A stretch of 64,000 nt of DNA. Origin: an uncultured Gemmatimonadaceae bacterium. Lineage in GTDB: Bacteria; Gemmatimonadota; Gemmatimonadetes; Gemmatimonadales; Gemmatimonadaceae. Both the position numbers and the translations under genes were made by a program. The notes beneath the pieces are model-generated. The model had not been told where the DNA came from, searched no databases, and saw only the letters and a list, made by a program, of their open reading frames with translations. The DNA lies in NCBI GenBank assembly GCA_963724885.1, contig CAVRWG010000002.1, positions 114,150-178,149 of the forward strand, given 5' to 3'. Positions within the stretch are counted from its first letter, which is position 1. Every line of letters starts with the position of its first letter. This document shows positions 1 to 57,298 of this stretch, one piece after another.

Positions 1-1335
1 CGGTGTCTTCACGGAAGCGTCCTCCGGGAGCTCCACGATCACGCGAACGCCGTACACGATGCCGCTGCGGCCCATCGCCTCGAGTGCGCGCAGCCCGCGC
101 GCGGACTCGATCGACGCCGGCAGCCAGTCGCCGCCCGGCGTGTGCGTCTCGAGCGCGCGCCACTGCCACGCAAGCGCAAGCGTCGGCGCGCCCGCGAGCA
201 CCAGCACGAGCAGCGGCCGGTTCACGATCCAGCCGCTCCAGCGTCGCCAGATATCCGCACGGTCGCGCGCGCCGGGCCGCGCGCGTCGCAGGCGCGGGGC
301 GTCGATGCGATCGCCGAGGATCGCCAGCGCTCCGGGAAGCAGCGTCGTCGCCATCAAGACGGAGACGGTGGTCACGAGCGCGCCGCCGATCGCGATGGAG
401 CGGAGGTCGGGGAGCGGCACCAGCAGGAGCGCGAGGAAGCCGACGAGCACCGCGGCGCCGGAGAGGGCGATGCTGTGGCCGGCGCGCGACGCGGCCTCGA
501 CGGCGGCCGCTTCGACGCCACCACCCCGGCGGCGGCTCTCGCGAAACCGGCTCACGAGGAGCAGCGCGTAGTCGATGCCGAGCCCCAGGCCCAGCATCGT
601 CGCGACGTTGAGCACCAGGATGGAAACGGGGAACAACCGGGCGACCAGCGCCACGACGCCCATCGTGACCGCGATCGCGAGCGCGCCGATTGCGACCGGA
701 ATGGCGGCGGCCACGAGCGCCCCGAACGCGATCGCGAGCAGCACGAGTGTCAACGGAAGCACCCGGCGCTCGGCGCGATTGGCATCGTCGGCGCTCACGC
801 GGCGCAGGTCCACCGTCAGCGGCAACTCGCCGGTCCAGAGGAGCTCCGCCCGCGGATGCCGGGCGCGCAGCTCGGCGACGAGTGCCGCGGTCGTGGCGCG
901 CAGCGACGGGAGGACGGCGTCGACGCTCGTGCCGCTTTCCCCCTCACGAAAGCCGACCATGACGAACGTGCTTCCGTCCCGTGCCGCGAACAGCGTGTCC
1001 GGCGCGTCGAGCAGGGAGAAGGTGGCCGCCACCGCGCTGTTGGCTCGCACCCGGCCGACGATCCGCGCCAGCGTCGCGCGGCCGCTGTCCTGAAACGGGC
1101 TCGGAATGCCGCGCACCACCAGCACGGCATGACGCGCGAAAGGAGATGCGAGCCGGTCGCCCATGAGCACCGCGGCACGCGCGGACTCGCTTCCCGGGAC
1201 GCGCGTGCCCGTGTCGAGCCGCTGCTCCACGCCGCGGGCGAAGGGAATCAGCGCCGCCGCAACGAGCGCCCACGCGACGAGCACGGCACGGCGGTGCCTG
1301 ACGATGAACTCCGGAAAGCGCGCCAGGTAGCTCAT
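1..1335 (-). CDS. MMPL/RND-superfamily membrane transporter (MmpL-like), N-terminal part; 3' end lies beyond the window start
   Basis: Reverse strand from ATG (rc of 1333-1335) translates MSYLARFPEFIVRHRRAVLVAWALVAAALIPF... followed by multiple hydrophobic helices and a periplasmic domain, typical of MMPL exporters. It is absent from the ORF track because no stop codon falls inside the window. The start overlaps the stop of the upstream gene (ATGA). Confidence 0.7.
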   Translation of the reverse strand, partial: MSYLARFPEFIVRHRRAVLVAWALVAAALIPFARGVEQRLDTGTRVPGSESARAAVLMGDRLASPFARHAVLVVRGIPSPFQDSGRATLARIVGRVRANSAVAATFSLLDAPDTLFAARDGSTFVMVGFREGESGTSVDAVLPSLRATTAALVAELRARHPRAELLWTGELPLTVDLRRVSADDANRAERRVLPLTLVLLAIAFGALVAAAIPVAIGALAIAVTMGVVALVARLFPVSILVLNVATMLGLGLGIDYALLLVSRFRESRRRGGGVEAAAVEAASRAGHSIALSGAAVLVGFLALLLVPLPDLRSIAIGGALVTTVSVLMATTLLPGALAILGDRIDAPRLRRARPGARDRADIWRRWSGWIVNRPLLVLVLAGAPTLALAWQWRALETHTPGGDWLPASIESARGLRALEAMGRSGIVYGVRVIVELPEDASVKTP

Positions 1336-2504
1336 CAGACGAGTGCCGTCTCGTGGTGCAGCAGCCTGCCGGAGAACATGTCGGGATCCGCGGAGCCGCG
1401 GGCGGTCGTGACGTACGCGCCGACGGCTGTCGGCTGTGCGAGCAAGCCCCGGACGGCCGCGCACATCGGGTCGCGCGCATCCAGGCCGATGGTGATGAAC
1501 GCGTAGTTCCGGCCGCAGTAGCGGCGGTACGCCTCCAGCACGAGCGCACGCAACACGTGCGTCTCCCGGGCGCAAACATGCACCGTCGCCAGCGCCGGCA
1601 GCACGGATCCCGCCGCGGGCAGCGGCACGCTGCCCACGAGCGGGGCGACGACGTTGATCGCCCGACGCACGATTGCGAGGCGCCGTGAGTAGCCTACCAC
1701 GCGCATCTGCTTGAAGGCCGCCTGGTCCCAGACGCCGAGGAACCCCCGGACGCGACCGGCGGCGTCCGTGGCCAGGAGATAGTTCGGCACCGTCAGGCCT
1801 GGCGCGCGACGGATCCAGGCGGCGAGGTGATCAGCGTCTCCCATGCCGGCGTCCGCGAACTGCCGCGTCGGGGCATAGCGCCGCCACGCCGCCGCCATCG
1901 CGTCGAGGTCGCCGTCGGTTGCCTGGCGCACGTGAATCCCCGACACGCGTTCGCGACGCTCCCAGAGCAGCGGGATGGCCCACACGGATAGCGTTGCAAA
2001 GCGCGAGAGCACGGCCGATCCGCGCGGCCCGCGCGTGCGATTCTCCATCGCCGAATTCCCGCCGAGGATCGTGCAGACGAGCGGCGCGTCCGGCCCGCAG
2101 AGGTCGGCCGCCGCCTCGCCCGCGTAACGTGTCAAGCGGTCGGCCGCACCCGAACGACGCGCACGCGGGTGCACCTTGAGGTCGCCGACATACGTGATGG
2201 GCCGCACCACGTCGTTGACGTACGCCAGCCTCCGCGCGGCGGCCACGCAGCCGACCACGTCTCCTTCGGCGTCCGGGATCACGCCGATTCGCGAGCGATT
2301 GCCCTCCAGGCGGTTGAGCGCGAAGAAGTCCGGCGAGCGGTCCATGCGCAGCGCGACGTCGCCGTGCATGGTGCACGCGGCCGTCAGCTCGATGAGAGCC
2401 TTGTTGTCCGCCGCGACGGCCTCGCGCACCCCCAGGTCTTCGCCGGAACCGGCCGGTGCCGGAGCCCGGCTCGCGATGGCCGTCATGGGCCGCTCACCCG
2501 GCAC
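1335..2504 (-). CDS. GNAT-like acyl/acetyl-transferase
   Basis: 389-aa ORF with an acyl-CoA-binding-like motif VHPRARRSGAADRL (R-x-x-G-x-A) and the size of a two-domain GNAT. It is translationally coupled to both neighbours. Confidence 0.45.
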   Translation of the reverse strand: MPGERPMTAIASRAPAPAGSGEDLGVREAVAADNKALIELTAACTMHGDVALRMDRSPDFFALNRLEGNRSRIGVIPDAEGDVVGCVAAARRLAYVNDVVRPITYVGDLKVHPRARRSGAADRLTRYAGEAAADLCGPDAPLVCTILGGNSAMENRTRGPRGSAVLSRFATLSVWAIPLLWERRERVSGIHVRQATDGDLDAMAAAWRRYAPTRQFADAGMGDADHLAAWIRRAPGLTVPNYLLATDAAGRVRGFLGVWDQAAFKQMRVVGYSRRLAIVRRAINVVAPLVGSVPLPAAGSVLPALATVHVCARETHVLRALVLEAYRRYCGRNYAFITIGLDARDPMCAAVRGLLAQPTAVGAYVTTARGSADPDMFSGRLLHHETALV

Positions 2505-4217
2505 ACGACAACACGTGGTTGCAGGGCGCTGCGATCCTCGCGGATCAACGCAGCGCCGAGCTGGCGATCCTCCTCAAGGCGTGTGCTGCCACCGGGAAGG
2601 TCTGTCCAGCCGACGAAGTTGCGGAACACGAGGCGCGCGCCCGGGGCGGCGACGCGTTCGACCTCGCGAAACAGCGCCGGGATCTCCGCCTCACTCAGCC
2701 ACTCGCAGATGTTGGACAGCGCGAACGCGTTCACCGAGCGGTCCGGCAGCGTCCGCAGGTGGTCCGTCATGCCGCCGTCCACGAGCAACAGGCTGCCGGT
2801 GCCACCCGCGATGACCCCGCACCCGCGCGCGCCGAGGTAGGGCGGCACGCCTTCCGGCTGCTCAATCCGGATACCGCCCCAGGAGCATGTGGTGCAGGAA
2901 GTAGTTGTCGGCGATCGGGATCGCGGTGAGCGCATGGCTCGCGAGCGCGCAGGAAATGTCCGGCGAAGCTCGTCTGCCCGGCGCTGCGCGAAGAAGCGCG
3001 GGTCGAATGCGCGCGACATCGACCACCGGTTGAGCAGCACCGTGAACATCCAGCGCCACCGTCGCGTGTCCCATTCGCGCGTGAAAAGGTCCTGTTGCTC
3101 CTCGAGCGAGCGGCAGGCCAGCAGGCGCTCGACGCGCGACGGCGTCTGTACGACGTGCCGCACGAACCAGCACACGAGCCGGATGAAGCGCTCGCTGACG
3201 CCCGCATTGATTGCGCCCCGCGCCACCGAGGTCGATCGTGCGTCCCAGTACGCCCGCGCCGCGTCGGTGAGCCGGGGGCGCAGCGTCCGGTACAGTTCGA
3301 TGCGTCGCCGGCCGGGCATGTCCTGCCCGCCGAGGAAGGCGATCGCGGTCTCGCGCGCGAGGCCGCAGACGGCGGCGATCTTGAGCTCGACGAGATGGTT
3401 TTGCGCGCGATTCACGTCCACGGCGTGCACCTGCACGCGCGCCGGCGCCCAGCAGCGACAGCGCCGTGCATCCGCCCGAGCTGACCACGACGACGCGGTC
3501 GCCGGGCTGCACGTCGAGCGCGTCGATCTCGACGCGCGCGTCCTCGCGCACCTGCGCGAAGTACAGCCGGTCGTCGCGCGCGCTCGGCAACGCGACACGC
3601 TCGATGCCGAAGGCGCGCCGCTGAGGGGGCGCTGGACGGTGGGTGCGGTCACGCGCCTGCCTCCATCCCAGTTCGAGCGTAAGCGTGTCGTAGACCTCGC
3701 GGTCCACCGCCGCGTAGCGCCGCATGATGTCTTTCACTTCGGCGCCGCGCACGAGCGCCTGTTCGTCGAGCCAGTCCTTCACCCAGGACAGGTGCCCCTG
3801 TTCCTCGTCGAGCATCTGGCGCAGCGTCGCCTGCACCGCCGGATGCGTTCCGGGACGGCGCAGATGCTCGGTGAAGTGCCGGTAGACACGTCGCTCGAAG
3901 ACCTGCGTCAGCGCCAGGACGTGCAGCACGCCGACCGGGTGGCCGACGACGGCCGCGTAGCGCGTCTGGTACGTGTCGCGCACCGGCTGCACGCGTCCAC
4001 CGACCGCCAGGATGGCGTCCGTCCACACCCGCGCGTGCAACACTTCCTCGGCCGAGTGCTCGAGCAGCTTGCTGGCGAGATGGCCGTCCCGCGTGCGACG
4101 CGCGACCTGTCCGAGGATCAGCCCGCCGTGCAGCTCGGACGCGCGATAGAAGTTGAGGAAGCGCAGCTCGCCCTCGGATACCTGCGGCGCACCGCGCTTG
4201 AGTGACGTCGTCGTCAT
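2483..4217 (-). CDS. Fusion protein: N-terminal ferritin-like di-iron domain plus C-terminal BtaA-like (DUF3419) SAM:3-amino-3-carboxypropyl transferase domain; apparent -1 frameshift near 3440-3460
   Basis: From ATG at 4217 (MTTTSLKRG...) one frame carries the E..EHSAEEVLH and LDEEQGHL di-iron motifs, then the BtaA N-terminal signature FAQVREDARVEIDALDVQPGDRVVVVSSGGCTALSLL. The rest of the BtaA domain (...LVDGGMTDHLRTLPDRSVNAFALSNICEWL...) continues in the frame of track ORF 2483..3652, so the reading frame is interrupted once. Confidence 0.55.
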
Positions 4218-4939
4218 ACGGCCTCCTTGAGATGATCGACGAGCCGAACGCCGCACAGGCGCTCGATGCGTCGGGCAAAGGTGCGAATCGCGAGGGGGTC
4301 GCCGGGCAGCGCGACGGGCACTTCCTCCACGGCCCGCTCGCCGAAGTGCCTGAAGTGCGTCGCGGCATCCAGGACGCGGGGAATCACCGTCGGATCGGCC
4401 GCGATGCGCTTGGCGATCAGGTCGGACGCGCTCTGCGCGTGCCGCACCTCGTCCGCCGCGATGAGCGCGAGCAGGTGCGCCAGCACCGGCTCGCGCGTCT
4501 GTTCGCCGAGCCGGCGGAAGAAATAGGACGCGAGATGCTCGCTGAGCATGAACTCGACGAGCCGCTCGATGAGATCGTAGTGGCCCTGGTCGGCATTCCT
4601 TGCAGCCCGGCGCATCTCGACGATGTCGTCGTCCGTCAGTGCCGGCTCGTAGCCCACGGCGTCGAGATACATCCGAAGCGCATGGAAGTGCTTGAAGCCC
4701 TCGTACATCTCGAGCGAGAACACGACACCGGCGTCGACGTCGTCCCACGTCTCCGCCAGGAGTCGCTGGAGATGCACCGGGTGATACGACTCGATGAGCG
4801 CGGCAATCCGGAGCGATGCATGCAGCTCGCGCTCGGGCGCGGCGGCGCCCGGGTCGATGTCGGCCCAGCGCACGTCGCGCTCGACCGACCAGCCACCGCG
4901 GTCCGCGGCGCTCGCGTGGCGCGCGTACAGGCGTCTCAT
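4214..4939 (-). CDS. Ferritin-like di-iron oxygenase/desaturase (acyl-ACP desaturase / AurF-like fold)
   Basis: Internal start MRRLYARHAS (rc ATG at 4937-4939) overlaps the stop of the upstream ligase gene by ATGA. Carries EHLASYFF...ADEVRHAQ helix motifs (E-x-x-H pairs). The long N-terminal extension shown in the track is Arg-rich junk in a GC-rich frame. Confidence 0.5.
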   Translation of the reverse strand: MRRLYARHASAADRGGWSVERDVRWADIDPGAAAPERELHASLRIAALIESYHPVHLQRLLAETWDDVDAGVVFSLEMYEGFKHFHALRMYLDAVGYEPALTDDDIVEMRRAARNADQGHYDLIERLVEFMLSEHLASYFFRRLGEQTREPVLAHLLALIAADEVRHAQSASDLIAKRIAADPTVIPRVLDAATHFRHFGERAVEEVPVALPGDPLAIRTFARRIERLCGVRLVDHLKEAV

Positions 4940-5835
4940 CGCAAAGCCTCCTCGAGCGCCGGCGCGTCCGTGGCGACCAGCGACGCCAGGAGCCAGCGCT
5001 CGAGGCCGAACGCGACGCACGCGGTGAACGCGGGCGAGCCGTCCGCCAGGCGGATGTCGAACGCCTCGCCGAAGAAACGGTCGTGCAGGTTGAATGACGC
5101 CGCCGCCACGGTCTCCCCGTCTCCGACGGGCAGCCGCAGCTCGTGCTTCAGCTCCTTGAGCCGCTGGAGCACCGCGCGGCCACGCCCCGTCGGAGCGAAG
5201 AACGGGTCCTCGGCGGGCGCGAGCTCGTGCTCGAGCTGCAGCTGCCGGGCGAACGCGCGCGCGAACGCGATGCCGCGATCGCGAAACGCGATGCACTCGG
5301 CTTCCGTCCCGATGCACACGATCTCGCGCATCGTGAACGCCCAGCCGCGTTCGAGCGGGCTGAGACGATCGCCCTCGTGCCGCCAGCAGCAGCCCTGCGC
5401 CGTCACGGTGCGTCGCGCACCGACGATCGTATTGGCGAGCGCGGCATACACGTGGTAGCACACGGCGGGTGGCAGCGCGACGCTGGCGGGGACGCCGGCC
5501 CCGCCGGCCTCACGCGCGGGGTGATCGCTCCGCGCGATCGCCTCGAGCGCGCGGGGATCCTCGGTGAGATGCGTGGCCAGCGTGAGCCACTGGGGGAACG
5601 ACGCGAAGTAGTCGGCGCGCTCGAGCACGCCGAGCGGCACGGCGGCGGGCACGGACCACTCGTCGCGCGTCTCCGCGCGACAGCGCACGGCGAGGAGCGA
5701 GTCCAGGCGCGCGAATCGCGCGCGCGTCTCGCCCGAGAGGCCCACGAGGCCGGGCGCCGGCTCCCACAGCTCGCCTCGCGCCCTGAGCCCGGCGATGATG
5801 CCGTCACGCTGCCGCATCGGCTTTCTCCAGGACAA
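4936..5835 (-). CDS. Amino acid:[carrier protein] ligase (class II aminoacyl-tRNA synthetase catalytic-core paralog, SerRS-like, no tRNA-binding arm)
   Basis: Class II motif 2-like CWRHEGDRLSPLERGWAFTMREIVCIG and motif 3-like GSPAFTACVAFGLERWLLA. About 300 aa with no N-terminal coiled-coil. It sits immediately downstream of an approximately 80-aa carrier protein, as in the Bradyrhizobium/Agrobacterium aa:CP ligase loci. Confidence 0.6.
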   Translation of the reverse strand: MSWRKPMRQRDGIIAGLRARGELWEPAPGLVGLSGETRARFARLDSLLAVRCRAETRDEWSVPAAVPLGVLERADYFASFPQWLTLATHLTEDPRALEAIARSDHPAREAGGAGVPASVALPPAVCYHVYAALANTIVGARRTVTAQGCCWRHEGDRLSPLERGWAFTMREIVCIGTEAECIAFRDRGIAFARAFARQLQLEHELAPAEDPFFAPTGRGRAVLQRLKELKHELRLPVGDGETVAAASFNLHDRFFGEAFDIRLADGSPAFTACVAFGLERWLLASLVATDAPALEEALR

Positions 5836-6073
5836 AGACTTCGGCGATGCGCTGGACCGAATGGAAGTTGTCCAGGCGGATCTGGGCGTCGGGGATCTCG
5901 CGTCCGATCTCGCGTTCGGTCCACGCGATGAGATCGAGCACCTTGATGGAGCTCACGAGGCCCGAGGCGAACAGGGGCGTGCGCGCACCGACGACGACGC
6001 CGGGGGGCGCCAGACGCGCGGTGATCCATTGCAGCATGCGCGCGACGAAGCGCGCGCGAGTGGCGGTCATCAT
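5804..6073 (-). CDS. Small acyl/aminoacyl carrier protein (ACP-like, about 80 aa)
   Basis: MMTATRARFVARMLQWITARLAPPGVVVGARTPLFASGLVSSIKVLDLIAWTEREIG...: a four-helix-sized protein with a Ser in an xGLxSSxxxLDLI context resembling a phosphopantetheine attachment site. The start ATG overlaps the reductase stop (ATGA). Confidence 0.55.
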   Translation of the reverse strand: MMTATRARFVARMLQWITARLAPPGVVVGARTPLFASGLVSSIKVLDLIAWTEREIGREIPDAQIRLDNFHSVQRIAEVFVLEKADAAA

Positions 6074-7125
6074 GCGGCCTCCAGCACCTGTGCGGTGCCA
6101 ACGAGGTGATCTGTCATGTTCGCCCAGAAGGACGCGACTGGCGGCGCGCTCTCGCCCAGCAGCGCGTCCGCGGCCCGCGTCTCGAAGCGCTTCGGGTGCG
6201 CGAGTTGCGGAACGAAGTGGCTCAGCGACTGCAGCGCCTGGCGCACGCGCGGGCTGGCGGCATCGTGCACCGCGCGCTCGAAGAGGCGGTACGTCTCGAG
6301 GTCGGTGCGCACGGGGCGCGCGATCCCCTTGCGGCGCCAGGCCGGCGCGCGAAGAAAGGCGTCGTAGCTGACGTCGAGCAGGTCGTCGAGCGGCATGGCG
6401 CCGGCGCCCGCGCAGAAGTGGAAGCTCTGGCGCGCCACATCCGGCGCCAGCGCGACGCGCGCGATCCCGCGCGCGACGTACTCGGTGGTCACGACGTCCA
6501 CGACCGACTCGTCGGTGCCGGGGAGCATCGGGGCCAGCCCGCCGAAGTAGAGGCGCAGGGCCCGATGCACGGCGTTCATTTGCGAGATCAGGCCGCGCGA
6601 GTCGTCGCAGACGATCGTGGCGGGGCGGGCGATGGCCCAGTCGGTGCGCGCCGCGCGCACCAGGTCCTCGGCCTCGGCTTTCGACTGCTCGTAGGCGTTC
6701 GCCCAGCCCGGCGGGTCCACGCCATCGTTCTCCGCGATCGATCCCGTGCGCAGGCCGGCGACGAACGCCGTGCTCACGTACACCCAGCGCGAGACATCGG
6801 GCCAGTCCGCCGACAGTTCCAGCAGGCGGCGCGTGCCATCCCGGTTGGTCCCGCGGGCGTCGTCGAGCGACTGCGAGAAGGACGTGTTCGCGGCGAGGTG
6901 AACGACCATCGTCACTTCACGCGCGAGTTGCGCGCGCACCGCCGGGCCGAGGCCCAGTCCGTCCAGGCGCAGGTCGCCCTGCAGCGCCGGAAGTCCGCCA
7001 ACGGTTTCGGGCCGCCGAGCGAGCACATACACGCGCTCGACCTCGTGGTCGGCCAGCAGGCGACGAACGACCTCGCGTCCGATCAGGCCCGTGGCGCCCG
7101 TCACGAAGCAGCAGTGTCCCGTCAT
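6070..7125 (-). CDS. NAD(P)-dependent thioester/fatty-acyl reductase (extended SDR, terminal-reductase-domain type)
   Basis: N-terminal Rossmann motif CFVTGATGLIGREVVRRLL, an YxxxK-type region (YEQSKAEAE), and a 351-aa length typical of fatty acyl-CoA reductase or NRPS/PKS R-domains. Confidence 0.6.
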   Translation of the reverse strand: MTGHCCFVTGATGLIGREVVRRLLADHEVERVYVLARRPETVGGLPALQGDLRLDGLGLGPAVRAQLAREVTMVVHLAANTSFSQSLDDARGTNRDGTRRLLELSADWPDVSRWVYVSTAFVAGLRTGSIAENDGVDPPGWANAYEQSKAEAEDLVRAARTDWAIARPATIVCDDSRGLISQMNAVHRALRLYFGGLAPMLPGTDESVVDVVTTEYVARGIARVALAPDVARQSFHFCAGAGAMPLDDLLDVSYDAFLRAPAWRRKGIARPVRTDLETYRLFERAVHDAASPRVRQALQSLSHFVPQLAHPKRFETRAADALLGESAPPVASFWANMTDHLVGTAQVLEAA

Positions 7126-7128
7126 GGC

Positions 7129-8100
7129 TCACGCCTCGAGCGCGAGGCCGGTCCAGTGCGCGCCGTACCCGTAGGAGAACAGCAGGATCCTGTCTCCGGC
7201 GTTCACGGCGCCGCCGTCCAGCGCGTCGCGCAGGTTGATGAAGTTGTCGCCCGCGAGCGTGTGGCCGATGCGGGCGATGTTGCCGCTCCAGAGCCGCGCG
7301 TTGGGAAGCGCGGCGAGCCGGAGCAGGATCTCCCAGCTCGTGGCGCTCACGTTGTGCGGCATGATCCAGTTGACGGTGTCCGGCTGCCACCCGGCGTCGG
7401 CGACGGTGCGGCGCATCACGCGCACCGCCGTGGGGAAGTACGACGCCATCACTTCGTCGCGCATCGCCGCGCCGCCGGCCCAGTAGAAGCCCTTGGTGAC
7501 CGAGGCGCCGCCGACGATGCGATTGCGCGTGGCGTCGCGCTCCACCAGCACGGCGCAGGCGGCGTCCGAGGTGCAGTTGGTGATCGCCTCCCGCCCGGCC
7601 GCCGCCGGATAGAACTCGCTCGCGACACACAGCACGCGCTCGAGCCCCTCCGCGACGCACAGCGCGCGCGCGAGCCGCACGGCGCCGAGGATCGCGGTGC
7701 AGGCCAGCTGGTCGAGGCCGAGCACCGTCGCGTGGTCGAGGCCGAGGTCGAACTGGAGCCGCGTGCCCGGATACTCGAAGCGGCCCGTGTCGCACAACGC
7801 ACTGGCTCTCGCGGCGGCGTCCCGTGGCTTGGAGAACGCGATCACGCCGGGAGCGCCGCAGTACAGCAGCGCGTCGATCGACAGCGGATCGACGTGATGA
7901 TCGCGCAGCAGGTCGGACGCGGCCGTGAGCGCGAGGTCGTACGGCGTCTCCTCGACGGCGACACCCACGCGGTCGAATCCGAAGCGCTCGAGCAGGCCGG
8001 CGTCCGACTCCAGTGATCCCGCGGCCGCCAGCTCGCGCACCGAGCGCGACACCGCGGGCACGGCGTAGGAGATGGCCGGGATGCCGGGGCGCGCGATCAT
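7129..8100 (-). CDS. 3-oxoacyl-ACP synthase III (FabH)-like condensing enzyme, atypical
   Basis: Start MIARPGIPAISYAVPAV (rc ATG 8098-8100). Thiolase-fold pattern with a Cys in LDQLACTAILGA, IMPHN and GNIARIGHT segments in KASIII-like positions, and a C-terminal YGYGAHWTGLAL. The residues deviate from canonical FabH, so a divergent KASIII-like acyltransferase is suggested. Confidence 0.5.
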   Translation of the reverse strand: MIARPGIPAISYAVPAVSRSVRELAAAGSLESDAGLLERFGFDRVGVAVEETPYDLALTAASDLLRDHHVDPLSIDALLYCGAPGVIAFSKPRDAAARASALCDTGRFEYPGTRLQFDLGLDHATVLGLDQLACTAILGAVRLARALCVAEGLERVLCVASEFYPAAAGREAITNCTSDAACAVLVERDATRNRIVGGASVTKGFYWAGGAAMRDEVMASYFPTAVRVMRRTVADAGWQPDTVNWIMPHNVSATSWEILLRLAALPNARLWSGNIARIGHTLAGDNFINLRDALDGGAVNAGDRILLFSYGYGAHWTGLALEA

Positions 8101-8693
8101 CGGATGGACTCCAGCTGGGCCACCGCGAGCACGTAGCCGGGCCACGGAGCCGTCAGCCTGGTGGCGGCGCGGAACCGCGCGCCCAGGCAGTGAACGCCGC
8201 GGACGTCGCCATCGTCGATCTCCAGCTCGAGCTCGTGAAAACCGACGCTGGAATCCAGTTCCAGCGCCTTCCACGCCGCTTCCTTCATCGCCCACAGCAC
8301 CGCGGCCGCGATGGACCCGGCGGAGCGGCGCTCGCGGGCGGTGAGGAAGAAGCGCTCGCGGGCCGGATCGATCGCTTCCAGGTTCTCGAGATCGATGCCG
8401 ATGTGCGATCCATCGGTCGCGGCGACCGCAGCCGCGAGTCCGTCGCGATGCGTCAGCGAGAGGGCGACTCTGCGACGCGCGGAACCCTCTCCGACGAGGT
8501 GCGCCAGGGGTGCGCGGTTGGCGCGGCGCTGAACCTCGATGGTTCCGCGGTCGCCGACGAGTTTACGAATGGCGCGATGGGCCGCGATGCGCGACGCGAC
8601 GAGCTCTGCGTCGGGCCTGAGGCCATCCGCCGACGGCAACTCCGCGACGGTCGCGAGCGCGACCACTGGATGACCACTGAATTGAGCCGGCAT
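8097..8693 (-). CDS. 4'-phosphopantetheinyl transferase (Sfp/AcpT type)
   Basis: HIGIDLENLEAI and WAMKEAAWKAL motifs. Likely start MPAQFSGHPV preceded by a gaggtgg RBS-like sequence. The stop overlaps the KASIII-like start. Confidence 0.6.
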   Translation of the reverse strand: MPAQFSGHPVVALATVAELPSADGLRPDAELVASRIAAHRAIRKLVGDRGTIEVQRRANRAPLAHLVGEGSARRRVALSLTHRDGLAAAVAATDGSHIGIDLENLEAIDPARERFFLTARERRSAGSIAAAVLWAMKEAAWKALELDSSVGFHELELEIDDGDVRGVHCLGARFRAATRLTAPWPGYVLAVAQLESIR

Positions 8694-8789
8694 CGTCCCA
8701 CCTCGGTGCATTGTTCGCACGTAAGGTGGGTCGTCCCAACGGCCTCAAAAATCAGTCTGTTTACGTAGCAGGAGCGGCCGAAACTACGT

Positions 8790-9746
8790 ATGGGGGCCGG
8801 GGACGTCGCCTTTCGAGGCTTTAACGGCGCGTTGCTGACTTCTCTGCACCTCGCGGAGCACTCAGCATCAAACTGCGCAGTGTGCCGCTTTCCATTTGCT
8901 ATAGTGACGCCAACCCGATCGGAGACACCGCTGGAAGTATTGGACGCGCAGCGCATCGTCGCTGGTGGTCGCCGTGGGAGCTCCCGACCCATTCTCGTCG
9001 AGACGACGGGCGGGCGTCGCCTGGTCAAGCTGCGCGGCGCCGCTCAGGGAACCGGCCCTCTCATCGCGGAAATCATCGTCGGCACGCTGGCGCAGGCGAT
9101 CGGGCTCTCTGTTCCCGGCCGCTGCCTCGTGAGACTGCGCCCCGGCATCGAGACTGTGGACGGTGACGACGAGCTCGCGGATCTGGTCGGCGCGAGCGCC
9201 GGCATCAACCTCGGCGTCGACTATCTCGACGATGCGCAGGAGATAGTCGCGTCTGATGTCGCGAGCATCCCGCTCGCGACGCAGGCCAGGATTCTCTGGC
9301 TCGACCGGCTGGTGCTCAACTCCGATCGCACTGGCCGGAACTCGAATCTCCTGAAGTGGCGGCGGCACCTCTGGCTCATCGATCACGGCGCGTCGCTGCC
9401 GTTTCAGTACGACTGGGCATCGGTGACGGAAGATCTCCCGGGGCAGCCAGGCTGGATGCGCGAGGCACATCTGTTCGAGGCATCGGTCCCGAACGCGCTA
9501 CTGTGGGAGACGGACCTGGCGCTGGGAGCGCTCCTCTCGCGCGACGTCGTCGGGTGCGCCGCGTCGCTCGTGCCGGATGAGTTCCTGCACACGCTCGATG
9601 CGTCGCAGCGTCGCCGGCGCCGCGCGGCGTTCGCAGCGTTCCTGTGGAAGCGTCTTCGAAGTCCACGACCGTTCCTCGGCGAACGGGCGTTGCCAGTCCA
9701 TCGCCCCGGCGCCAAGCCAGCATGGGTCCGGCGGAGCCCGCCCTGA
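8790..9746 (+). CDS. HipA-like / atypical kinase-fold protein (hypothetical)
   Basis: Segment LVLNSDRTGRNSNLLKWRRHLWLIDHGASL resembles the HipA catalytic loop (D-x-x-x-x-N-x-x-LL) and an IDHG (DFG-like) element, but the canonical His and Lys are replaced. Transcribed divergently from the biosynthetic operon. Confidence 0.3.
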   Translation: MGAGDVAFRGFNGALLTSLHLAEHSASNCAVCRFPFAIVTPTRSETPLEVLDAQRIVAGGRRGSSRPILVETTGGRRLVKLRGAAQGTGPLIAEIIVGTLAQAIGLSVPGRCLVRLRPGIETVDGDDELADLVGASAGINLGVDYLDDAQEIVASDVASIPLATQARILWLDRLVLNSDRTGRNSNLLKWRRHLWLIDHGASLPFQYDWASVTEDLPGQPGWMREAHLFEASVPNALLWETDLALGALLSRDVVGCAASLVPDEFLHTLDASQRRRRRAAFAAFLWKRLRSPRPFLGERALPVHRPGAKPAWVRRSPP

Positions 9747-9752
9747 CCTCGG

Positions 9753-11177
9753 TTATTTCTTCCGCGCCAGCTGCTCCACGACGTCCCACTGGAACCGCAC
9801 GAACTTGTGCAGCTCGCTCTCCAGGATGCGTTCCTGGTCGCTGTGCGCGCCGAACCCCTTGGGCCCGTCCTCGACGTCGAACGCGGGGCCGATACCGTAA
9901 CATTGCATGCCTTTCGCGCGGAGATAGGCCATGTCGGTCGCGCCGGTGAGCATGGTCGGCAGCGTCACCGTCTGATAGTGCCGCGTGACGGCGGCCTCGA
10001 TGGCGCGGAACGCATCTGTGTCGAGTCGTGCCTGGGGCGTCTCGGGACGCACGTCGCGCCGCGCGTAGGCGACGGTGATGGCCGGGTCGTTGATGACGCC
10101 GCGCACGGTCTCGAGGAACGCGGCGGTGTCCTCGCCGGGCACCATGCGGACGTCGAGCGTCGCCTTCGCCTCCGACGGGATCACGTTCACGCGGTACCCC
10201 GCCTGGACGATGTTGGGCGAGATGGACGTGCGGATGACCGACGCGTGCGCCGGCTCGAATTCGAGGAAGTACTCGTCGGTGACGGCGACGCTCGTGCCGT
10301 CGTTGCCGGTGATCGCGCGATACCGGCCGGCGCTGTCCGCGCCGGAGATGGACGCGAGCCGCTGGAAGTAGGTGCGGGTCGTCTCGTTCAGCTTGATGGG
10401 CGTTCGATACGCGGCGATCTTCGCGACCGCCTGCGCCAGGTGCGCCACGGCGTTGCCGCGCAGCGGCACGGAACCGTGGCCCGCGGGACCGCGCGCGGTC
10501 AGCTCGATGGCGCGCGGGATCTTCTCGGTGGTCGAGACGCCGGCGAACTTGACGCGCCCGCCGACGCGCGCGACGGCGCCGCCTTCGGCGAGACAATACT
10601 CCGCTTCGATCTTCGGGAAGTGCTCGCGCGTCATGTGCTGGATGCCGACGCGCGTGGAGCCCTCCTCGCCCGCTTCCGCGAGGAAAATCACGTCGCGATC
10701 CAGCGGCACCGCGAGCCGCTTGAGTGTGAGCATGAGCATCAGGGCGGCGACCACGTTGTCCTTGTCGTCCACCGCGCCGCGGCCGTAGACGTAGCCGCCG
10801 TCGCGCGTCGCGCTGAATGGCGGGTGCGTCCACTTGGCGGGGTCCACGTTCACGACGTCCGTGTGGCCCATGATCAGCAGCGGTCTTTTCGTTCCGCTCC
10901 CCTTGAGCCGGGCCACCAGGTTGGGGCGATTCGGTTCGAGGGCGAACGTCTCGACCGGAATGCCTTCCTTCTCGAGCACCTGCTTGAGGTACTCGACGGC
11001 CGCGCGCTCCGTGCCCGGGGGATCGCTGGTGTCGAACCGCAGCAACGCCTGAAAGTGTTGCATGGTCTCGGCTTCGATGCCGGGCCAGTCGGGCTGTCGG
11101 GGACGCTGGGCCGGAGCGACTGAGAATGCGCTCAGGGCCAGCGGGAGTAGCACGTATTGTCCGAGTGAGTGACGCAT
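9753..11177 (-). CDS. M20-family metallopeptidase (secreted; dipeptidase/carboxypeptidase type)
   Basis: Signal peptide MRHSLGQYVLLPLALSAFSVAPAQ, and M20 motifs HTDVV, GAVDDK, EEGS and GGAV... across 474 aa. Confidence 0.75.
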   Translation of the reverse strand: MRHSLGQYVLLPLALSAFSVAPAQRPRQPDWPGIEAETMQHFQALLRFDTSDPPGTERAAVEYLKQVLEKEGIPVETFALEPNRPNLVARLKGSGTKRPLLIMGHTDVVNVDPAKWTHPPFSATRDGGYVYGRGAVDDKDNVVAALMLMLTLKRLAVPLDRDVIFLAEAGEEGSTRVGIQHMTREHFPKIEAEYCLAEGGAVARVGGRVKFAGVSTTEKIPRAIELTARGPAGHGSVPLRGNAVAHLAQAVAKIAAYRTPIKLNETTRTYFQRLASISGADSAGRYRAITGNDGTSVAVTDEYFLEFEPAHASVIRTSISPNIVQAGYRVNVIPSEAKATLDVRMVPGEDTAAFLETVRGVINDPAITVAYARRDVRPETPQARLDTDAFRAIEAAVTRHYQTVTLPTMLTGATDMAYLRAKGMQCYGIGPAFDVEDGPKGFGAHSDQERILESELHKFVRFQWDVVEQLARKK

Positions 11178-52673: not shown

Positions 52674-53966
52674 TCATCCCGAGCGCAGCGAGGGATCCGC
52701 CGTTGTGACGTACTTCCTGACCGCGGTCACGACCCGGTCCATCTCGTCCATCGTGTTGTAGAAGTGCGGCGATAGGCGCACGCCGGGACGCGCCGTTCCG
52801 CCGGACGCGGCGCAGGCGATCCGGTCCTTCTCGTACAGGGTGGCGGCGAGCTTCCGCGGGTCCAGCGCCCCGGGCTTGAAGACAATGATGGCCGCCGAAC
52901 GCGCGGCGTCCGGGTTCGTCCAGAGCGTCACTCCGTCGATGCGCTGGAGCTGCGTGGCGAGGTGCGTCGCCAGTTGCCGCGCGCGTTTCTCGATGGCCGC
53001 GCGGCCGATTTCGTCCTGGAGCTTCAGCGCCGCGCCCAGCGTGGCGAGCGCCGCCTCGTCGCGCTGGCCGAACGCTTCGTGCGTGCGGGAGATCCCGACC
53101 GCGCCGCCGTAGAGGCTCACGATGCTGGGCGCGATGCGGTCGTGCACTTCGCGGTCCACGTACAGGACGCCGATCTCCTTCGGAGCGCAGGGCCATTTGT
53201 GCGCCGAGCCAGAATAGAAGTGCGGCCGCATCTGGGTCAGGTTGACGTCGAGGACGCCGAACGATTGCGCGCCGTCCACCAGCGCGAACACGCCACGCTC
53301 GCGCGCCACGCGGCAGAGGTCCGCGACAGGCAGCATGTCGCCCATCGTGTTGGTGACGTGGGTGACCGCGAGCACGCGGGTTCTCGGCGTGATCGCTCGC
53401 GTGAATGCCTCGACGTAGGCGGCCGGCCCGGGATGCGGGTTCGTCACCGCGACCTCGACGACCGTGAACCCGAACCGCTTCGCCTTCTCGCGCCAGGCGT
53501 TCAGGTTGCTCGGGTGGTTGTCGGCGAAGATCACCACTTCGTCGCCCGGCGAGAGCTGGAGCCCGCTCGAGACGAGGTTGTTCGCCTCGCTGGTGTTGCG
53601 CGTGATGATGATCTCTTCCGGCGTGACCTGAAGTGCGCGGGCCACGAGGCGGCGGGCCTCCTCGCGTCCCTCGGTCAGCTTCGCCCGGCTCGCCGAAGAC
53701 GGGTTGCCGTCGAGGAAGCGCGTGTTGCGCTCCAGCGCCTCGATGACCGGGAGGGACGTGGGGCAGAGATTGGCCGCGTTCACGAACGCGAAGTCCGGCG
53801 GCATCAGGAACCGGGCGCGAACCTCCTTCCAGAACTTCTCGTCGGGCTCCGTGGGCGTCGGCGGCAGCGGCGTTCCGATGAGGCGCATCGGAAGGCCCGG
53901 CAGGAAAGCCGCCGAGCCGGTGAGCGCGAGAAGCCGGGTAAAGTCGCGTCGCGAAACAGCGGTCAT
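52674..53966 (-). CDS. Class V aminotransferase-fold PLP-dependent enzyme with Tat (twin-arginine) signal
   Basis: Internal start MTAVSRRDFTRLLALTGSAAFLPG (the RRDF Tat motif) and SGSAHKWPCAPKEIGVLYV (PLP-lysine region). Its start overlaps the stop of the TDO-like frame by ATGA. Confidence 0.6.
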   Translation of the reverse strand: MTAVSRRDFTRLLALTGSAAFLPGLPMRLIGTPLPPTPTEPDEKFWKEVRARFLMPPDFAFVNAANLCPTSLPVIEALERNTRFLDGNPSSASRAKLTEGREEARRLVARALQVTPEEIIITRNTSEANNLVSSGLQLSPGDEVVIFADNHPSNLNAWREKAKRFGFTVVEVAVTNPHPGPAAYVEAFTRAITPRTRVLAVTHVTNTMGDMLPVADLCRVARERGVFALVDGAQSFGVLDVNLTQMRPHFYSGSAHKWPCAPKEIGVLYVDREVHDRIAPSIVSLYGGAVGISRTHEAFGQRDEAALATLGAALKLQDEIGRAAIEKRARQLATHLATQLQRIDGVTLWTNPDAARSAAIIVFKPGALDPRKLAATLYEKDRIACAASGGTARPGVRLSPHFYNTMDEMDRVVTAVRKYVTTADPSLRSG

Positions 53967-54728
53967 GCAGCGTCGACTCGCAGGCGTAGCGTCGTTGAAG
54001 AACTTCGCCCGCACTTCGGCGAGCTTCGGGAAGTAGCGAATGCTCGTGGTGCGATGCAGGAAGCTTGCGCCCTTGGAGCCACCCGTACCAGTGGTGCCCG
54101 GGCCCAGCATGCGCTCCACGAGCTGGGCGTGCTGAAAACGCCACTGTCCGAACTCCATCTCGTACTCCAGCAGCGCTTCGGCGATGAAGAAGTGCAGCTT
54201 CGGGCCCGGGCCGAGGTACAGCTGGTCGAGCGACGTGCCCTCCTGTCTGCAGAAACTCGAGGAACATGTCCTGCAGGGACGGACGGTCGAGCCACCGCTT
54301 GATGCTCGGCCGGGATCGCGCCCTGCTCCTCGAGCAGCTCGACGAACCACGGCTCGCGCAGTCCCGACGCCGCTTCGATGGCGCGGAACTGCATGCTCTG
54401 CGATCCGCTGGACGTGCCGAGGTTGGCGCGGAACGCCGCGAAGTGCTGCGGCGGCAGCAGCGCGAGCGACGCCAGCTGCGCCGACACGATGCGCATGATG
54501 CCGTTCACGCGCTGGAGCTGCCAGAGCGCGAGCCCGGCGTCGCGCCTCGTGAACGCGCCGGCGAGCGTGTCGAGGTCGCGCAGCAGCACCTTGAACCACA
54601 GCTCGCTCGACTGGTGCACGACGATGAAGAGCAGCTCGTCCGGGTGCTCCGGGGCTGGAGCGCGGGCGCTGGAGCGTCAGCAGCTCGTCGAGCGCCAGGT
54701 AGCTGGGGTAGGTGACTTCGTCGGTCAA
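53963..54728 (-). pseudogene. kynA: Tryptophan 2,3-dioxygenase (kynA-like) interrupted by at least two frame changes
   Basis: TDO signatures sit in three different frames: YLALDELLTLQ (N-terminus, frame of 54728), HQSSELWFKVLLRDL...SGSQSMQFRAIE (frame of track ORF 53963..54619), and LYLGPGPKLHFFIAEALLEYEMEFGQWRF (back in the first frame). A tandem duplication-like sequence at about 54640 (ggagcgcgggcgctggagcg) and an odd segment at 54245-54300 coincide with the breaks. Confidence 0.55.
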
Positions 54729-55462
54729 AAGGTCGAGACCTCGAGCGCGGCGATGTCGTCCACGCGCATCGTTTCCGTGGTGAAGAACGGCTCGCCGTAC
54801 CGCGCGCGGATCATCGAGCCGTAGTAGGCCGAGTAGTGCCGAATCGCGTCGTACAGCGGCTCGCCGTTGGGGTACACCTCTCCCGCCTGCGTCGCGCCCC
54901 CGAACTGCGTCTCGAAGCAGCGGATCGCCGCGATCTTCTCGTCGAACTCGTCGGAGATGTCCACGACGAACGTCGGCTTCTCGAAGTCCTGCCGGAAGCT
55001 GACGCAGTGGACGACCTTGTGCGGCCGGTGCTTGGGGACGTCTGGCGCGACCTTCGCGAGCCCCGCGATGAAGCAGGCGTCGCGCACCAGCTCGGCGGTG
55101 ACGCGATGGTCCGGATGCCGTCCCTGACGCGCCGGCGCGATCACGACGCGCGGCTTGAACCGCCGGATCGCCCGCGCCACGAGCTCGCGCGTGGCGGGTC
55201 GTTGACGATACCGGCGTCCGGCAGGCCGAGATTCTCGCGCGCCGAGAGCTTCATGATGGTTGCGGCTTTCGCCGCTTCCTCGCGCGCGACTCTTCGCGTC
55301 GCCCTTCGTGCCCATCTCGCCGGCGGTGAGATCGATGACCGCCGTCTTGCGCCCCTGCTTGGCCGCCTTGATCAGCGTCCCGGCGCAGGTGAGCTCGACG
55401 TCGTCTCGATGCGCGGCGATGGCGAGGAGATCGATCATGCAGAGAGAGAAGGCGGAAGGCAA
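54725..55462 (-). CDS. PIG-L/LmbE-family N-acetylglucosaminyl deacetylase (BshB1-like); two compensating frameshifts at about 55190-55275
   Basis: MIDLLAIAAHRDDVELTCAGTLIKAA is the family signature. An internal stretch reads correctly (EEAAKAATIMKLSARENLGLPDAGIVNDP) only in a shifted frame, and the original frame then resumes. Confidence 0.55.
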   Translation of the reverse strand: MPSAFSLCMIDLLAIAAHRDDVELTCAGTLIKAAKQGRKTAVIDLTAGEMGTKGDAKSRARGSGESRNHHEALGARESRPAGRRYRQRPATRELVARAIRRFKPRVVIAPARQGRHPDHRVTAELVRDACFIAGLAKVAPDVPKHRPHKVVHCVSFRQDFEKPTFVVDISDEFDEKIAAIRCFETQFGGATQAGEVYPNGEPLYDAIRHYSAYYGSMIRARYGEPFFTTETMRVDDIAALEVSTF

Positions 55463-55994: not shown

Positions 55995-57249
55995 CTACTC
56001 GTACCGCAGCGCCTCGATGGGGTCGAGACGCGCCGCGCGCCGCGCCGGAAGCAGACCGAACACGATGCCGATACCGACGGAGACGAACACCGCGAGAATC
56101 GTGAGATCGAGCGGCGGCACCGAGTCGATGTTCATCGCCACGTTCGCCAGGCGCCCGAGCATGAGCCCCGTCCCGATGCCAGCGATGCCGCCGATCCCCG
56201 TGAGCGTCGCCGCCTCGATCAGGAACTGCTGCAGGATGTCGCGGCGCGTCGCGCCCACCGCCTTGCGGATGCCGATCTCGCGCGTGCGCTCCGTGACGGA
56301 GATCATCATCACCGCCATCACGCCGATGCCGCCGACGAGCAGCCCGACGGCGCTCAGCGCCATCATCACGAGGAAGAACGCGCCGGTGATCTTGTTGAAC
56401 AGGTCGAGGATCTGGTCCTGGGTGATCAGGTCGAACGTGTTGCGGATCGGCGGGTCGCAGGTGCCGCAGCTCGCGCAGCGCGACGGTCACGGCGTTCTGC
56501 GCATCGCTCGACGCGTCGACGCCCGGCGCGCGGCTTCACCGAGATGAACAGCGCGTTCGTCTTGTCGATCGTGAACTGATGGTCCAGCATCTGGAACGGG
56601 ACGATCGCGCGAACTGCTCCTGCCCCGGCGGCTCGAAGATGTTCGCCGCTGCCTGGTAGATACCGATGACCTTCGCGGGCCGCCCGCCGATCGCGGATGC
56701 GTCTTGTCGATCGGCTGGATGCTGCCGAACAGCTTGATGGCCACGTCGCTCTCGAGCACGACGACGGCCGCGCCGCTCGCCATCTCGGACCTGGTGAACC
56801 AGCGGCCGGCGGACAAGTTCGCCGCCGTAGATCTCGGGGTAGCCGTCGTCGGCGCCCGTGATCAGCCGCCAGTCCCGTACGCGTGCCGCCGTACTCGAGC
56901 CGGTTGAGGATCTGCCCCCAGAGCGACGCGTACTGGATTTCCGGCAGCGCCGCGATGCGCTCGCCCTCCGGCCGCGGACAGCACCGGGCGGATGCGCACC
57001 CACTTGGGCAGGTTCTCCGGATTGAGCGGCGTCTGCGAGAAGACCTTCATCACGTAGAACGTCGTCGGCCCGGCGATCTCGATCGTGCGCACGATCTGGT
57101 CGCTGGATGCCGTGCACGATCGACGCCATCGCCATCACGTACGAGACGCCGATGACGACGCCGAGGATCGTGAGCGCCGAGCGCATCTTGCTGTGCGCGA
57201 GCGTCGAACGCGACCGCAACGTTCTCCTGAACGTATCGATGAGGTTCAT
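55995..57249 (-). CDS. ABC-transporter permease, FtsX/MacB-like family, paralog 1; internal frameshifts
   Basis: An intact C-terminal FtsX domain (55995..56369; ...[16 protein letters not shown]) and an N-terminal TM at about 57249 (MNLIDTFRRTLRSRSTLAHSKMRSALTILGVVIGV). The middle lies in other frames. Confidence 0.6.
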
Positions 57250-57298
57250 CGGACATCGGATGGTCGGATGACGGACGCGGATGGCAGAGACGCGCATC

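Follow-up and report, generated by a model that had tools for sequence, protein, structure and literature searches.

A conserved Gemmatimonadota operon around an aminoacyl-tRNA synthetase-derived ligase and its carrier protein: a predicted pathway for synthesis and export of an amino-acid-derived metabolite

In a stretch of 64,000 nucleotides from an uncultured Gemmatimonadaceae bacterium (assembly GCA_963724885.1, contig CAVRWG010000002.1, positions 114,150 to 178,149; hereafter, the window, with positions counted from its first letter), the minus strand of the left end is occupied by an operon in which a small carrier protein (CP) and a ligase of the kind that loads amino acids onto such proteins (aa:CP ligase), derived from seryl-tRNA synthetase (SerRS), are encoded together with a divergent β-ketoacyl-acyl carrier protein synthase III (KASIII)-like enzyme, a stand-alone thioester reductase (TR), two di-iron proteins and, in the distal part, a BtaA-like protein, a GNAT acyltransferase and an MMPL-family exporter. 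From the comparisons reported here, we consider it moderately probable that this operon builds an amino-acid-derived, probably lipid-like metabolite on the dedicated CP and exports the product; we infer the product and the order of the steps from the families to which the encoded proteins belong and from gene content across genomes.

Minus-strand coding is unbroken from position 1 to ~8700, as judged by third-position GC content (GC3) in each frame, and the gene map was derived from this frame analysis combined with open reading frame (ORF) translation and start-codon mapping; the operon region is ~72% G+C, so that the raw ORF lists are crowded with spurious frames. In transcription order, the genes encode a 4'-phosphopantetheinyl transferase (PPTase), the KASIII-like enzyme, TR, CP, the ligase, the di-iron proteins DI1 and DI2, the BtaA-like DUF3419 protein, GNAT and MMPL. 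ATGA overlaps mark the PPTase/KASIII, TR/CP, ligase/DI1, DI1/DI2 and DUF3419/GNAT junctions, a TGATG overlap marks the GNAT/MMPL junction, the CP and ligase genes overlap by 14 nt, and a gap of 3 nt separates the KASIII and TR genes. The genes form one translationally coupled operon that runs beyond the left edge of the window. An earlier note on this DNA, made from the letters alone, had proposed a single operon of co-directional, overlapping genes, and this proposal is borne out by the frame map, the junctions and synteny in relatives; the gene identities that it suggested all agree with Pfam, NCBIfam and PDB searches. Its count of nine genes has to be amended to the ten carried by relatives, in which DI2 and DUF3419 are separate.

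The ligase gene (4936 to 5817, minus strand) encodes a protein of 293 amino acids (aa) that comprises the catalytic core only. Among solved structures, the closest to it is that of Bll0957, an aa:CP ligase specific for glycine (PDB 3mey, E=2.9e-33), whereas the methanogen-type (type-2) SerRS 3w3s is matched with E=2.9e-11 and over its catalytic part only (residues 311-491). The matches span residues 28-286 of the ligase, and the homologues are 272-316 aa long. Because the matches cover only the SerRS catalytic core in a protein of this size, the ligase lacks a tRNA-binding domain, and the housekeeping SerRS with an intact tRNA-binding or anticodon domain, which the earlier note had weighed, can be ruled out for a core domain that is paired with a CP. 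The NCBIfam model NF005479 is matched with E=4.4e-47 and 160.6 bits, and the equivalog cut-off of 357 is not reached; judged by these comparisons, the ligase is a divergent subfamily of the aa:CP ligases. Three residues, C121, E166 and C268, do not vary among 29 homologues and line up with the 'aCY', 'MRE' and 'GCVAFG' motifs of Bll0957, so this Cys/Glu/Cys set is the predicted zinc site of the ligase, matching the zinc-site motifs of Bll0957. More than 1200 database relatives were detected at E<=1e-10, the closest of them annotated as Gemmatimonadaceae.

The CP gene (5804 to 6073, minus strand; 89 aa) lies directly upstream of the ligase gene, and CP-ligase fusions are found in two loci of the comparative set described below (L047 and L054). 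The protein matches PF00550 with E=3.3e-4 and 21.3 bits, just above the cut-off of 20.8, and weakly matches NF005480, the acyl carrier protein (ACP) partner of the aa:CP ligase family. The conserved Ser that the earlier note required of a genuine carrier is present as Ser42, which is invariant in 43 orthologues and is likely to be the phosphopantetheine attachment site. A link to the ornithine-lipid system OlsHI, raised by a weak match of the CP to NF052616 (E=6.5e-4), was set aside: there is no GH3-like gene, and the match seems to reflect a general resemblance among ACPs. The amino acid loaded by the aa:CP ligases characterised so far is Gly or Ala (PMC5370406). According to a 2022 review, the metabolic role of these enzymes 'remains unknown' (PMC9437257), in agreement with the earlier note, and a literature search gave nothing newer.

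A scan of one genome per GTDB species yielded 569 confirmed ligase relatives, of which 80 loci (L numbers below) were kept, and gene content was scored by mapping ten proteins of locus L001 onto all loci. L001 is an independent 1.25-Mb metagenome contig with a ligase 76% identical to that of the window and with the same ten genes, order and overlaps, which also recur in L002. The same ten genes in the same order are present in about 35 Gemmatimonadota genomes among the kept loci, and about 40 Gemmatimonadota loci have full or partial copies of the operon, the ligases being as little as ~50% identical; on every contig of sufficient length, the arrangement from PPTase to MMPL is complete in Gemmatimonadaceae, in other Gemmatimonadales and in Longimicrobiales, apart from a few variants. 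The preservation of order and overlaps in L001 and dozens more genomes is far beyond chance, and the synteny in relatives that the earlier note called for is thus widespread. There are departures: DI2 is missing in L031, L038 and L046, and several Gemmatimonadota operons contain an extra radical-SAM/SPASM gene (~335 aa), absent from the window, between GNAT and MMPL (L020, 14470-15474; L041, 14561-15559; L038, 13951-14967; L013, 14375-15529). A second Gemmatimonadaceae variant (L054, 9623-13353; also L047 and L071) has the CP-ligase fusion as a 417-aa ORF and an S-adenosylmethionine (SAM)-dependent methyltransferase gene between ligase and DI1, which recalls the nitronate O-methyltransferase of enteromycin-type pathways.

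Beyond this phylum, the core (KASIII, reductase, CP, ligase and a di-iron protein) is found in at least seven others, the core-bearing groups being Myxococcota, Actinomycetota, Acidobacteriota, Eisenbacteria, Gammaproteobacteria, Nitrospira and Sericytochromatia; KASIII, TR and ligase co-occur in 54 of 83 sources. Among the carriers are the cultured myxobacteria Archangium violaceum Cb vi76 and A. lansingense. The cluster of the former (L053, NZ_JPMI01000378.1, 4074-16267) encodes a fatty acyl-AMP ligase (FAAL), PPTase, KASIII, TR, CP, ligase and DI1, followed by a DesA-family desaturase-like protein, a second, DIP2-like FAAL and an FAD amine oxidase, and is devoid of DI2, DUF3419, GNAT and MMPL. 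Elsewhere, ligase homologues stand apart from the core. Nineteen loci, including Sorangium chromosomes, Bryobacterales and Acidobacteriaceae, have no KASIII, TR or di-iron genes within 10 kb (L044, L048, L050, L057, L058, L062, L064, L066, L067, L069, L070, L072, L075 and L077-L082), so the ligase family also serves other contexts. On a megaplasmid of Streptomyces clavuligerus (L084; e.g. NZ_CP065235.1, 327165-345950), the same loading pair occurs in a different context: a ligase homologue 35.5% identical, a small CP-like ORF and a PPTase are accompanied by a condensation-domain protein, a phytanoyl-CoA dioxygenase-family protein, DUF6271 and an MFS transporter.

The di-iron proteins offer the most informative clue to the chemistry that may take place on the carrier. 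DI1 (4214 to 4939, minus strand; 241 aa) is a predicted ferritin-fold oxygenase with no Pfam family; it comes closest to acyl-ACP desaturases, its profile finding Mycobacterium tuberculosis DesA2 with E=5.8e-10, and the family is small, with 234 cluster representatives among 1.84 billion. It is not a member of the AurF family PF11583, and the possibility that it is a divergent AurF was rejected, a profile-profile comparison (hhalign) giving a probability of 0.2%, that is, no relationship. In a sister clade, the gene order is KASIII-X-CP-ligase-TR-DI2, where X is an AurF-family di-iron oxygenase that matches PF11583 at E=1e-28 to 6e-41. One or the other, DI1 or AurF-like, is encoded in 52 of the 54 core-containing sources, and the two together in none; the remaining two are contigs that end at the ligase. 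This pattern looks like non-orthologous displacement within one functional slot, in which DI1 appears to have displaced AurF-type oxygenases, and the mutually exclusive occupancy of the slot by AurF-family genes suggests that the amino acid is oxidised while tethered. The relevant precedents are HamC and PvfB, which oxidise valine bound to the adenylation-thiolation-reductase (A-T-R) proteins HamD and PvfC, respectively, before reductive release (PMC11659414), and di-iron oxygenases that convert glycine loaded on nonribosomal peptide synthetases (NRPS) to an aldoxime or nitronate that is then extended (PMC9967187, citing He & Ryan 2021). The order of events in the earlier note, with condensation and release preceding oxidative tailoring, is accordingly not favoured, given that the slot is occupied in sister clusters by members of the AurF family, whose known enzymes act on tethered amino acids before release.

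DI2 (3655 to 4217, minus strand; ~187 aa), a four-helix bundle protein resembling COQ7, rubrerythrin and symerythrin, gives weak matches to PF03232 (COQ7) and PF02915 (Rubrerythrin) and PDB profile matches to Dps-like proteins, symerythrin and MiaE. The predicted metal ligands E28, E58-x-x-H61 and E139-x-x-H142 are invariant and E108 nearly so. The protein is 77% identical to the product of a separate 190-aa gene of L001, and in L054 it is fused to a second PP-binding domain. A further cassette with an AurF-like gene, an ACP, an aminoacyl-tRNA synthetase (aaRS)-related ligase and a PPTase lies on a plasmid of Streptomyces sp. NBC_00335 (L083, NZ_CP108007.1, 140279-159088), surrounded by two more ACPs, type II ketosynthase/chain-length factor (KS/CLF) ketosynthases, two AMP-binding enzymes, FabI and a FabG-like reductase; the strain is in culture, and the biosynthetic gene cluster is uncharacterised.

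The three proximal genes would supply further functions of the pathway. The PPTase, of the Sfp type (8097 to 8693, minus strand; 198 aa, with an alternative start at 8711), matches PF01648 (ACPS) with E=1.3e-8 and, weakly, PF17837, and its orthologues hold the first operon position in relatives. The KASIII-like protein (7129 to 8100, minus strand; 323 aa) has the thiolase fold and matches PF08541 (ACP_syn_III_C) with E=1.1e-12; the profile of its orthologues matches Aquifex FabH (2ebd) with E=1.8e-32, with 'GHT' aligned to the 'GNT' of FabH. In 41 orthologues, Cys134 is invariant, His249, at the position of FabH His244, is His in 33 and Gln in 8, and His280 occupies the position of FabH Asn274 in all, so that the canonical Cys-His-Asn triad is replaced. 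TR (6070 to 7125, minus strand; 351 aa), an NAD_binding_4 protein of the short-chain dehydrogenase/reductase (SDR) type, matches PF07993 with E=6e-40 and TIGR01746 with E=3e-29, the score of 102 being below the cut-off of 213. TR is probably redox-active, given that 52 orthologues keep its TGxxGxxG and YxxxK motifs, and a redox-dead TR acting as a Dieckmann cyclase (tetramate formation) is unlikely for the same reason.

The distal genes hint at the nature of the product. The protein called simply GNAT in the earlier note belongs to that family and is, more exactly, a tandem (double) GNAT N-acyltransferase of 383 aa (1335 to 2486, minus strand), for which a structure model built from an alignment of database hits is confident (pLDDT 90.1); the tandem GNAT is as close to N-myristoyltransferase as to any other tandem GNAT, and the sequence-profile match to human NMT1 is marginal (E=5e-4). 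The MMPL-family RND exporter (1 to 1335, minus strand) is cut by the window edge, leaving the N-terminal ~445 of ~734 aa; it matches PF03176 with E=1.6e-35, as well as TIGR00833 and the MmpL3 domain, and its L001 orthologue is full-length (734 aa) in the same operon position. The DUF3419 gene (2483 to 3652, minus strand) encodes a BtaA-like member of the SAM-dependent 3-amino-3-carboxypropyl transferase family; betaine-lipid synthase carries the DUF3419 annotation (PMC10685587). In a MAG of Acidimicrobiales (L056, 3861-6155, minus strand), DUF3419 and the tandem GNAT are a single 765-aa fusion protein, whose gene is divergent from an operon of AMP-binding, KASIII, AurF-like, ligase, TR, PPTase and DI2 genes. 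FAAL-type AMP-binding genes occur near the core in Archangium, in two Actinomycetota loci and in one Polyangiaceae locus, the exporters in the clusters are of the MMPL or ABC-2 type, and the Archangium cluster includes the DesA-family membrane-desaturase-like gene, a 388-aa ORF for which the alternative assignment as a divergent tandem GNAT was ruled out. Taken together, the FAALs, the DesA-like gene, the MMPL or ABC-2 exporters and the BtaA-like/tandem-GNAT pair suggest a lipid-like product.

In the window, the DUF3419 frame is interrupted. The PF11899 match is split over two frames (126 bits for profile positions 54-336 and 36 bits for positions 8-50), and tblastn and DNA alignment show that the coding sequence shifts between frames at four single-base insertions, near 3433, 2987, 2951 and 2866. 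When the four extra bases are skipped in a frameshift-aware alignment, a 386-aa DUF3419 protein is recovered that is 75% identical (289/386) to its closest orthologue, in L003, and the corrected frames contain no stop codon. With no stop codon in the window, DI2 continues in frame through the first ~70 residues of DUF3419, so that the ORF 4217..2862 as sequenced consists of DI2, these ~70 residues and out-of-frame sequence. The fusion of a di-iron protein with a BtaA-like domain described in the earlier note thus dissolves into a frameshift-ridden locus; in L001, DI2 (190 aa) and DUF3419 (386 aa) are encoded by distinct genes that overlap by 4 nt, and DUF3419 orthologues are intact in 30 loci. 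Other window genes are split as well. Tryptophan 2,3-dioxygenase (minus strand) is divided between the frames 52674-55250 and 53963-54676, Pfam profile positions 40-143 lying in one frame and 283-343 in another, and its C-terminal part continues in frame into a kynureninase-like class-V aminotransferase; a further assembly indel is the probable cause of the split; and a MacB-type permease (minus strand, 55995-57453) has its MacB_PCD domain (56536-57453) and FtsX C-terminal domain (55995-56486) in different frames, with a confused coding signal between the two domains that marks a candidate frameshift.

It could be argued that the cluster is a decaying, non-functional relic in this genome, with a genuine pseudogene in place of the BtaA-like gene, given that four frameshifts fall within ~570 bp of one gene, that the stop codon of DI2 is lost and that the insertion contexts are not homopolymers. 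We find this very unlikely. Bacterial pseudogenes decay mainly by deletion, whereas all four lesions are +1 insertions; the corrected protein retains its similarity to the orthologue with no in-frame stops; the other eight operon genes are intact; and the split dioxygenase and MacB/FtsX genes point to errors of assembly. Moreover, some relatives are without the whole DUF3419/GNAT/MMPL module, so the core could work alone. Assembly indel errors are therefore the more likely reading of the lesions, and loss of the aminocarboxypropyl/GNAT decoration step in this organism would be the less likely one. A possible parallel is L042 (MFD09206.bin.1.40, contig_10819), where tblastn coverage of almost every operon gene is fragmentary (22-91%), a pattern consistent with many indels in a long-read assembly.

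The pathway that we consider most plausible would begin with conversion of the 89-aa CP into its holo form by the Sfp-type PPTase. The presumably zinc-dependent, SerRS-derived ligase, the family membership of which is clear, would then activate a small amino acid with ATP and thioesterify it to the CP, the substrate being Gly or Ala if the characterised members of the family are a guide. DI1, together with or followed by DI2, would oxidise the tethered amino acid, most likely at the nitrogen, as suggested by the AurF-family genes that take the place of DI1 in sister clusters and never occur together with it. The KASIII-like enzyme, with its Cys/His/His residues, might join the oxidised unit to an acyl chain through a C-C bond, the unit being either an atypical starter that is elongated from malonyl-ACP or a carbanion to which a fatty acyl group is transferred. 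Release, as an aldehyde or alcohol, would fall to TR, with its intact cofactor-binding and catalytic motifs. A 3-amino-3-carboxypropyl group from SAM would be added in most Gemmatimonadaceae by the BtaA-like DUF3419 protein, and an amine would be N-acylated by the tandem GNAT, a coupling supported by the DUF3419-GNAT fusion in L056, before the MMPL transporter exported the product. The simplest synthesis is that ligase, CP and TR are together the counterpart of an NRPS A-T-R unit, dissociated and derived from an aaRS. The idea of a complete-looking pathway with export at its end, which the earlier note had put forward, is supported, unlike its analogy with sphingoid-base assembly: no aminotransferase or α-oxoamine synthase-family domain, and hence no pyridoxal phosphate (PLP)-dependent α-oxoamine synthase, was detected with Pfam and NCBIfam in the ten gene products or in L001, and the KASIII-like enzyme is without the canonical Asn.

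Several observations weigh against this pathway. DI1 shows no detectable sequence relationship to AurF-like proteins and, its nearest fold being that of a desaturase, could act on carbon, by desaturation or hydroxylation, instead of on nitrogen. The KASIII-like protein departs from the canonical triad at the Asn and, in the sister clade, also at the His, so that its reaction could be acyl transfer and not condensation. The ligase scores 160.6 bits, well under the NCBIfam cut-off of 357, and may have a substrate other than Gly or Ala. No FAAL is encoded in the Gemmatimonadota operon, which leaves the source of any acyl chain unspecified; the DUF3419/GNAT/MMPL tail is missing in L025, L033, L034 and L043 (Gemmatimonadales and Longimicrobiales), making the decoration and export module accessory; and DUF3419 is disrupted in the window.

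Some of these observations would be accommodated by a route of the Pvf/Ham type, in which ligase, CP and TR replace the NRPS A-T-R protein in trans, the di-iron enzymes N-oxygenate the amino acid on its carrier, TR frees it reductively and the product is a small signal or metallophore rather than a lipid: an N-hydroxy- or nitroso-amino aldehyde or alcohol, such as a pyrazine N-oxide, a diazeniumdiolate or a hydroxamate made by GNAT, exported by MMPL. N-hydroxylation followed by GNAT acylation is the standard logic of hydroxamates, and MmpL4/5 export mycobactins. The absence of FAAL from the Gemmatimonadota operon fits such a route, and the arrangement of AurF-like, CP, ligase and TR genes in the sister clusters mirrors HamC/HamD and PvfB/PvfC (PMC11659414). 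Nevertheless, we regard it as rather unlikely because the invariably present KASIII has no counterpart in ham or pvf, DI1 itself is outside the AurF family, and FAALs, a membrane desaturase-like gene, a BtaA-like transferase and lipid-type exporters recur around the core. Alternatively, the product might be an N-acyl amino alcohol or aldehyde lipid formed without any N-oxidation, with the KASIII-like enzyme N-acylating the aminoacyl-S-CP before release by TR, DI1 desaturating or hydroxylating the carrier-bound chain, and the BtaA-like protein and GNAT adding a homoserine-ether head group to give a phosphorus-free membrane lipid. Such a lipid would suit the proximity of DI1 to acyl-ACP desaturases, the missing canonical Asn and the presence of the KASIII-fold acyltransferases CerJ and ChlB3 among the PDB matches, as well as the betaine-lipid synthase affinity of DUF3419 and the MMPL exporter. 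Yet the KASIII-like protein is much nearer to FabH (E=1.8e-32) than to CerJ and ChlB3 (E=1e-13 to 1e-16) and retains two hydrogen-bond donors at the decarboxylation/oxyanion positions, and the complementary distribution of DI1 and AurF is hard to explain for a chain desaturase, so this scheme seems to us distinctly improbable. More speculative than either, and a long shot, is a particular elaboration of on-carrier N-oxidation: the di-iron enzymes would turn glycyl- or alanyl-S-CP into a nitro/nitronate thioester, whose acidic alpha-carbon, in the manner of the malonyl-ACP enolate, would attack a fatty acyl group on the Cys/His/His KASIII-like enzyme in a non-decarboxylative Claisen reaction; reductive release together with reduction would yield a 2-nitro- or 2-amino-1,3-dioxygenated long-chain base, to be fitted, in Gemmatimonadota, with an N-acylated homoserine ether head group and passed by MMPL to the outer membrane. 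If true, this would constitute a PLP-independent, aaRS-primed route to sphingoid-like lipids.

A literature search found no description of this gene set or pathway. The system is not categorically new since its parts come from known superfamilies and its logic resembles that of known thiotemplate pathways. Mocibob and colleagues reportedly described, in 2010 and 2013, the aa:CP ligases Bll0957 and Bll6282 of Bradyrhizobium and Atu2573 of Agrobacterium with their partner carrier proteins. Like the Bll0957-type enzymes, the window ligase is a truncated methanogen-type SerRS core with a Cys/Glu/Cys site and an adjoining small CP with a conserved Ser, but it is only about 30-35% identical to them, falls below the NCBIfam equivalog cut-off and belongs to a fixed operon of 7-10 genes with KASIII, TR and di-iron proteins, whereas the characterised ligases are without an established metabolic context (PMC9437257). 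With the Pvf and Ham systems (valdiazen, fragin and pyrazine N-oxides), the operon shares the proposed carrier loading, on-carrier di-iron oxidation and reductive release (PMC11659414) and, in the sister clusters, a true AurF-family gene beside CP and ligase; it differs in that a class II aaRS relative, and no ANL adenylation domain, is the loader, three separate proteins provide the A, T and R functions, KASIII is always present, the di-iron enzyme of the window clade is desaturase-like, and there are no counterparts of HamA, HamB, HamE, HamF and HamG.

A comparable likeness exists to the pathways of enteromycin carboxamide, althiomycin and akazaoxime, in which NRPS-loaded glycine is oxidised by a di-iron enzyme and then joined to the next unit by a ketosynthase or condensation step (PMC9967187). 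The SAM methyltransferase between ligase and DI1 in the L054-type variant adds to the resemblance to glycine nitronate pathways; unlike these modular NRPS/PKS aldoxime and nitronate systems, however, the operon has discrete parts, an aaRS-derived loader and reductive release. The DUF3419/BtaA-family gene and MMPL at the operon end are reminiscent of BtaA in the synthesis of the betaine lipid DGTS and of actinobacterial MmpL lipid export, but there is no BtaB methyltransferase and there are no diacylglycerol-forming genes, the acceptor would be an alcohol released by the reductase, and DUF3419 is coupled to a tandem GNAT (fused in L056) and frameshifted in the window. Finally, with starter-unit KASIII enzymes of type II PKS/FAS systems (such as DpsC and FabH), the KASIII-like protein has in common the thiolase fold, ACP_syn_III_C and the invariant Cys, which makes an unusual carrier-bound starter plausible, whereas the His at FabH Asn274, the His or Gln at His244 and the absence of cognate KS/CLF or elongation genes from the operon set it apart.

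The operon apparently starts near 8700 because the genes that flank it are unrelated and differ from the flanks in relatives. Directly upstream and divergent is a gene for a HipA-like kinase (8790-9746, plus strand; PF20613, E=1e-14), followed by an M20/M28 peptidase gene (9753-11177, minus strand); neither of the two is kept beside the operon in relatives. No Rfam family or riboswitch, consensus promoter or terminator was found in the operon leader.

The operon thus appears to represent carrier-protein-templated biosynthesis, and it provides a conserved pathway context for an orphan, structurally characterised ligase family. Among living systems, the worlds of the aminoacyl-tRNA synthetases and of thiotemplates are nowhere linked more clearly than in the aa:CP ligases, which have crystal structures and in vitro activities and a role that has been unknown since 2010 (PMC9437257). 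They now gain fixed partners over at least eight phyla, namely, KASIII, TR, di-iron oxygenases and genes for a lipid head group and export, and the analysis also delimits a small di-iron family, DI1, for which there is no existing model. As cultivable carriers exist, in particular, Archangium violaceum Cb vi76 and Streptomyces sp. NBC_00335, the role of the ligase becomes directly testable. If the proposed pathway is correct, the abundant and poorly studied Gemmatimonadota of soil should make and export a new class of compounds, either lipids derived from amino acids or N-oxygenated metabolites.

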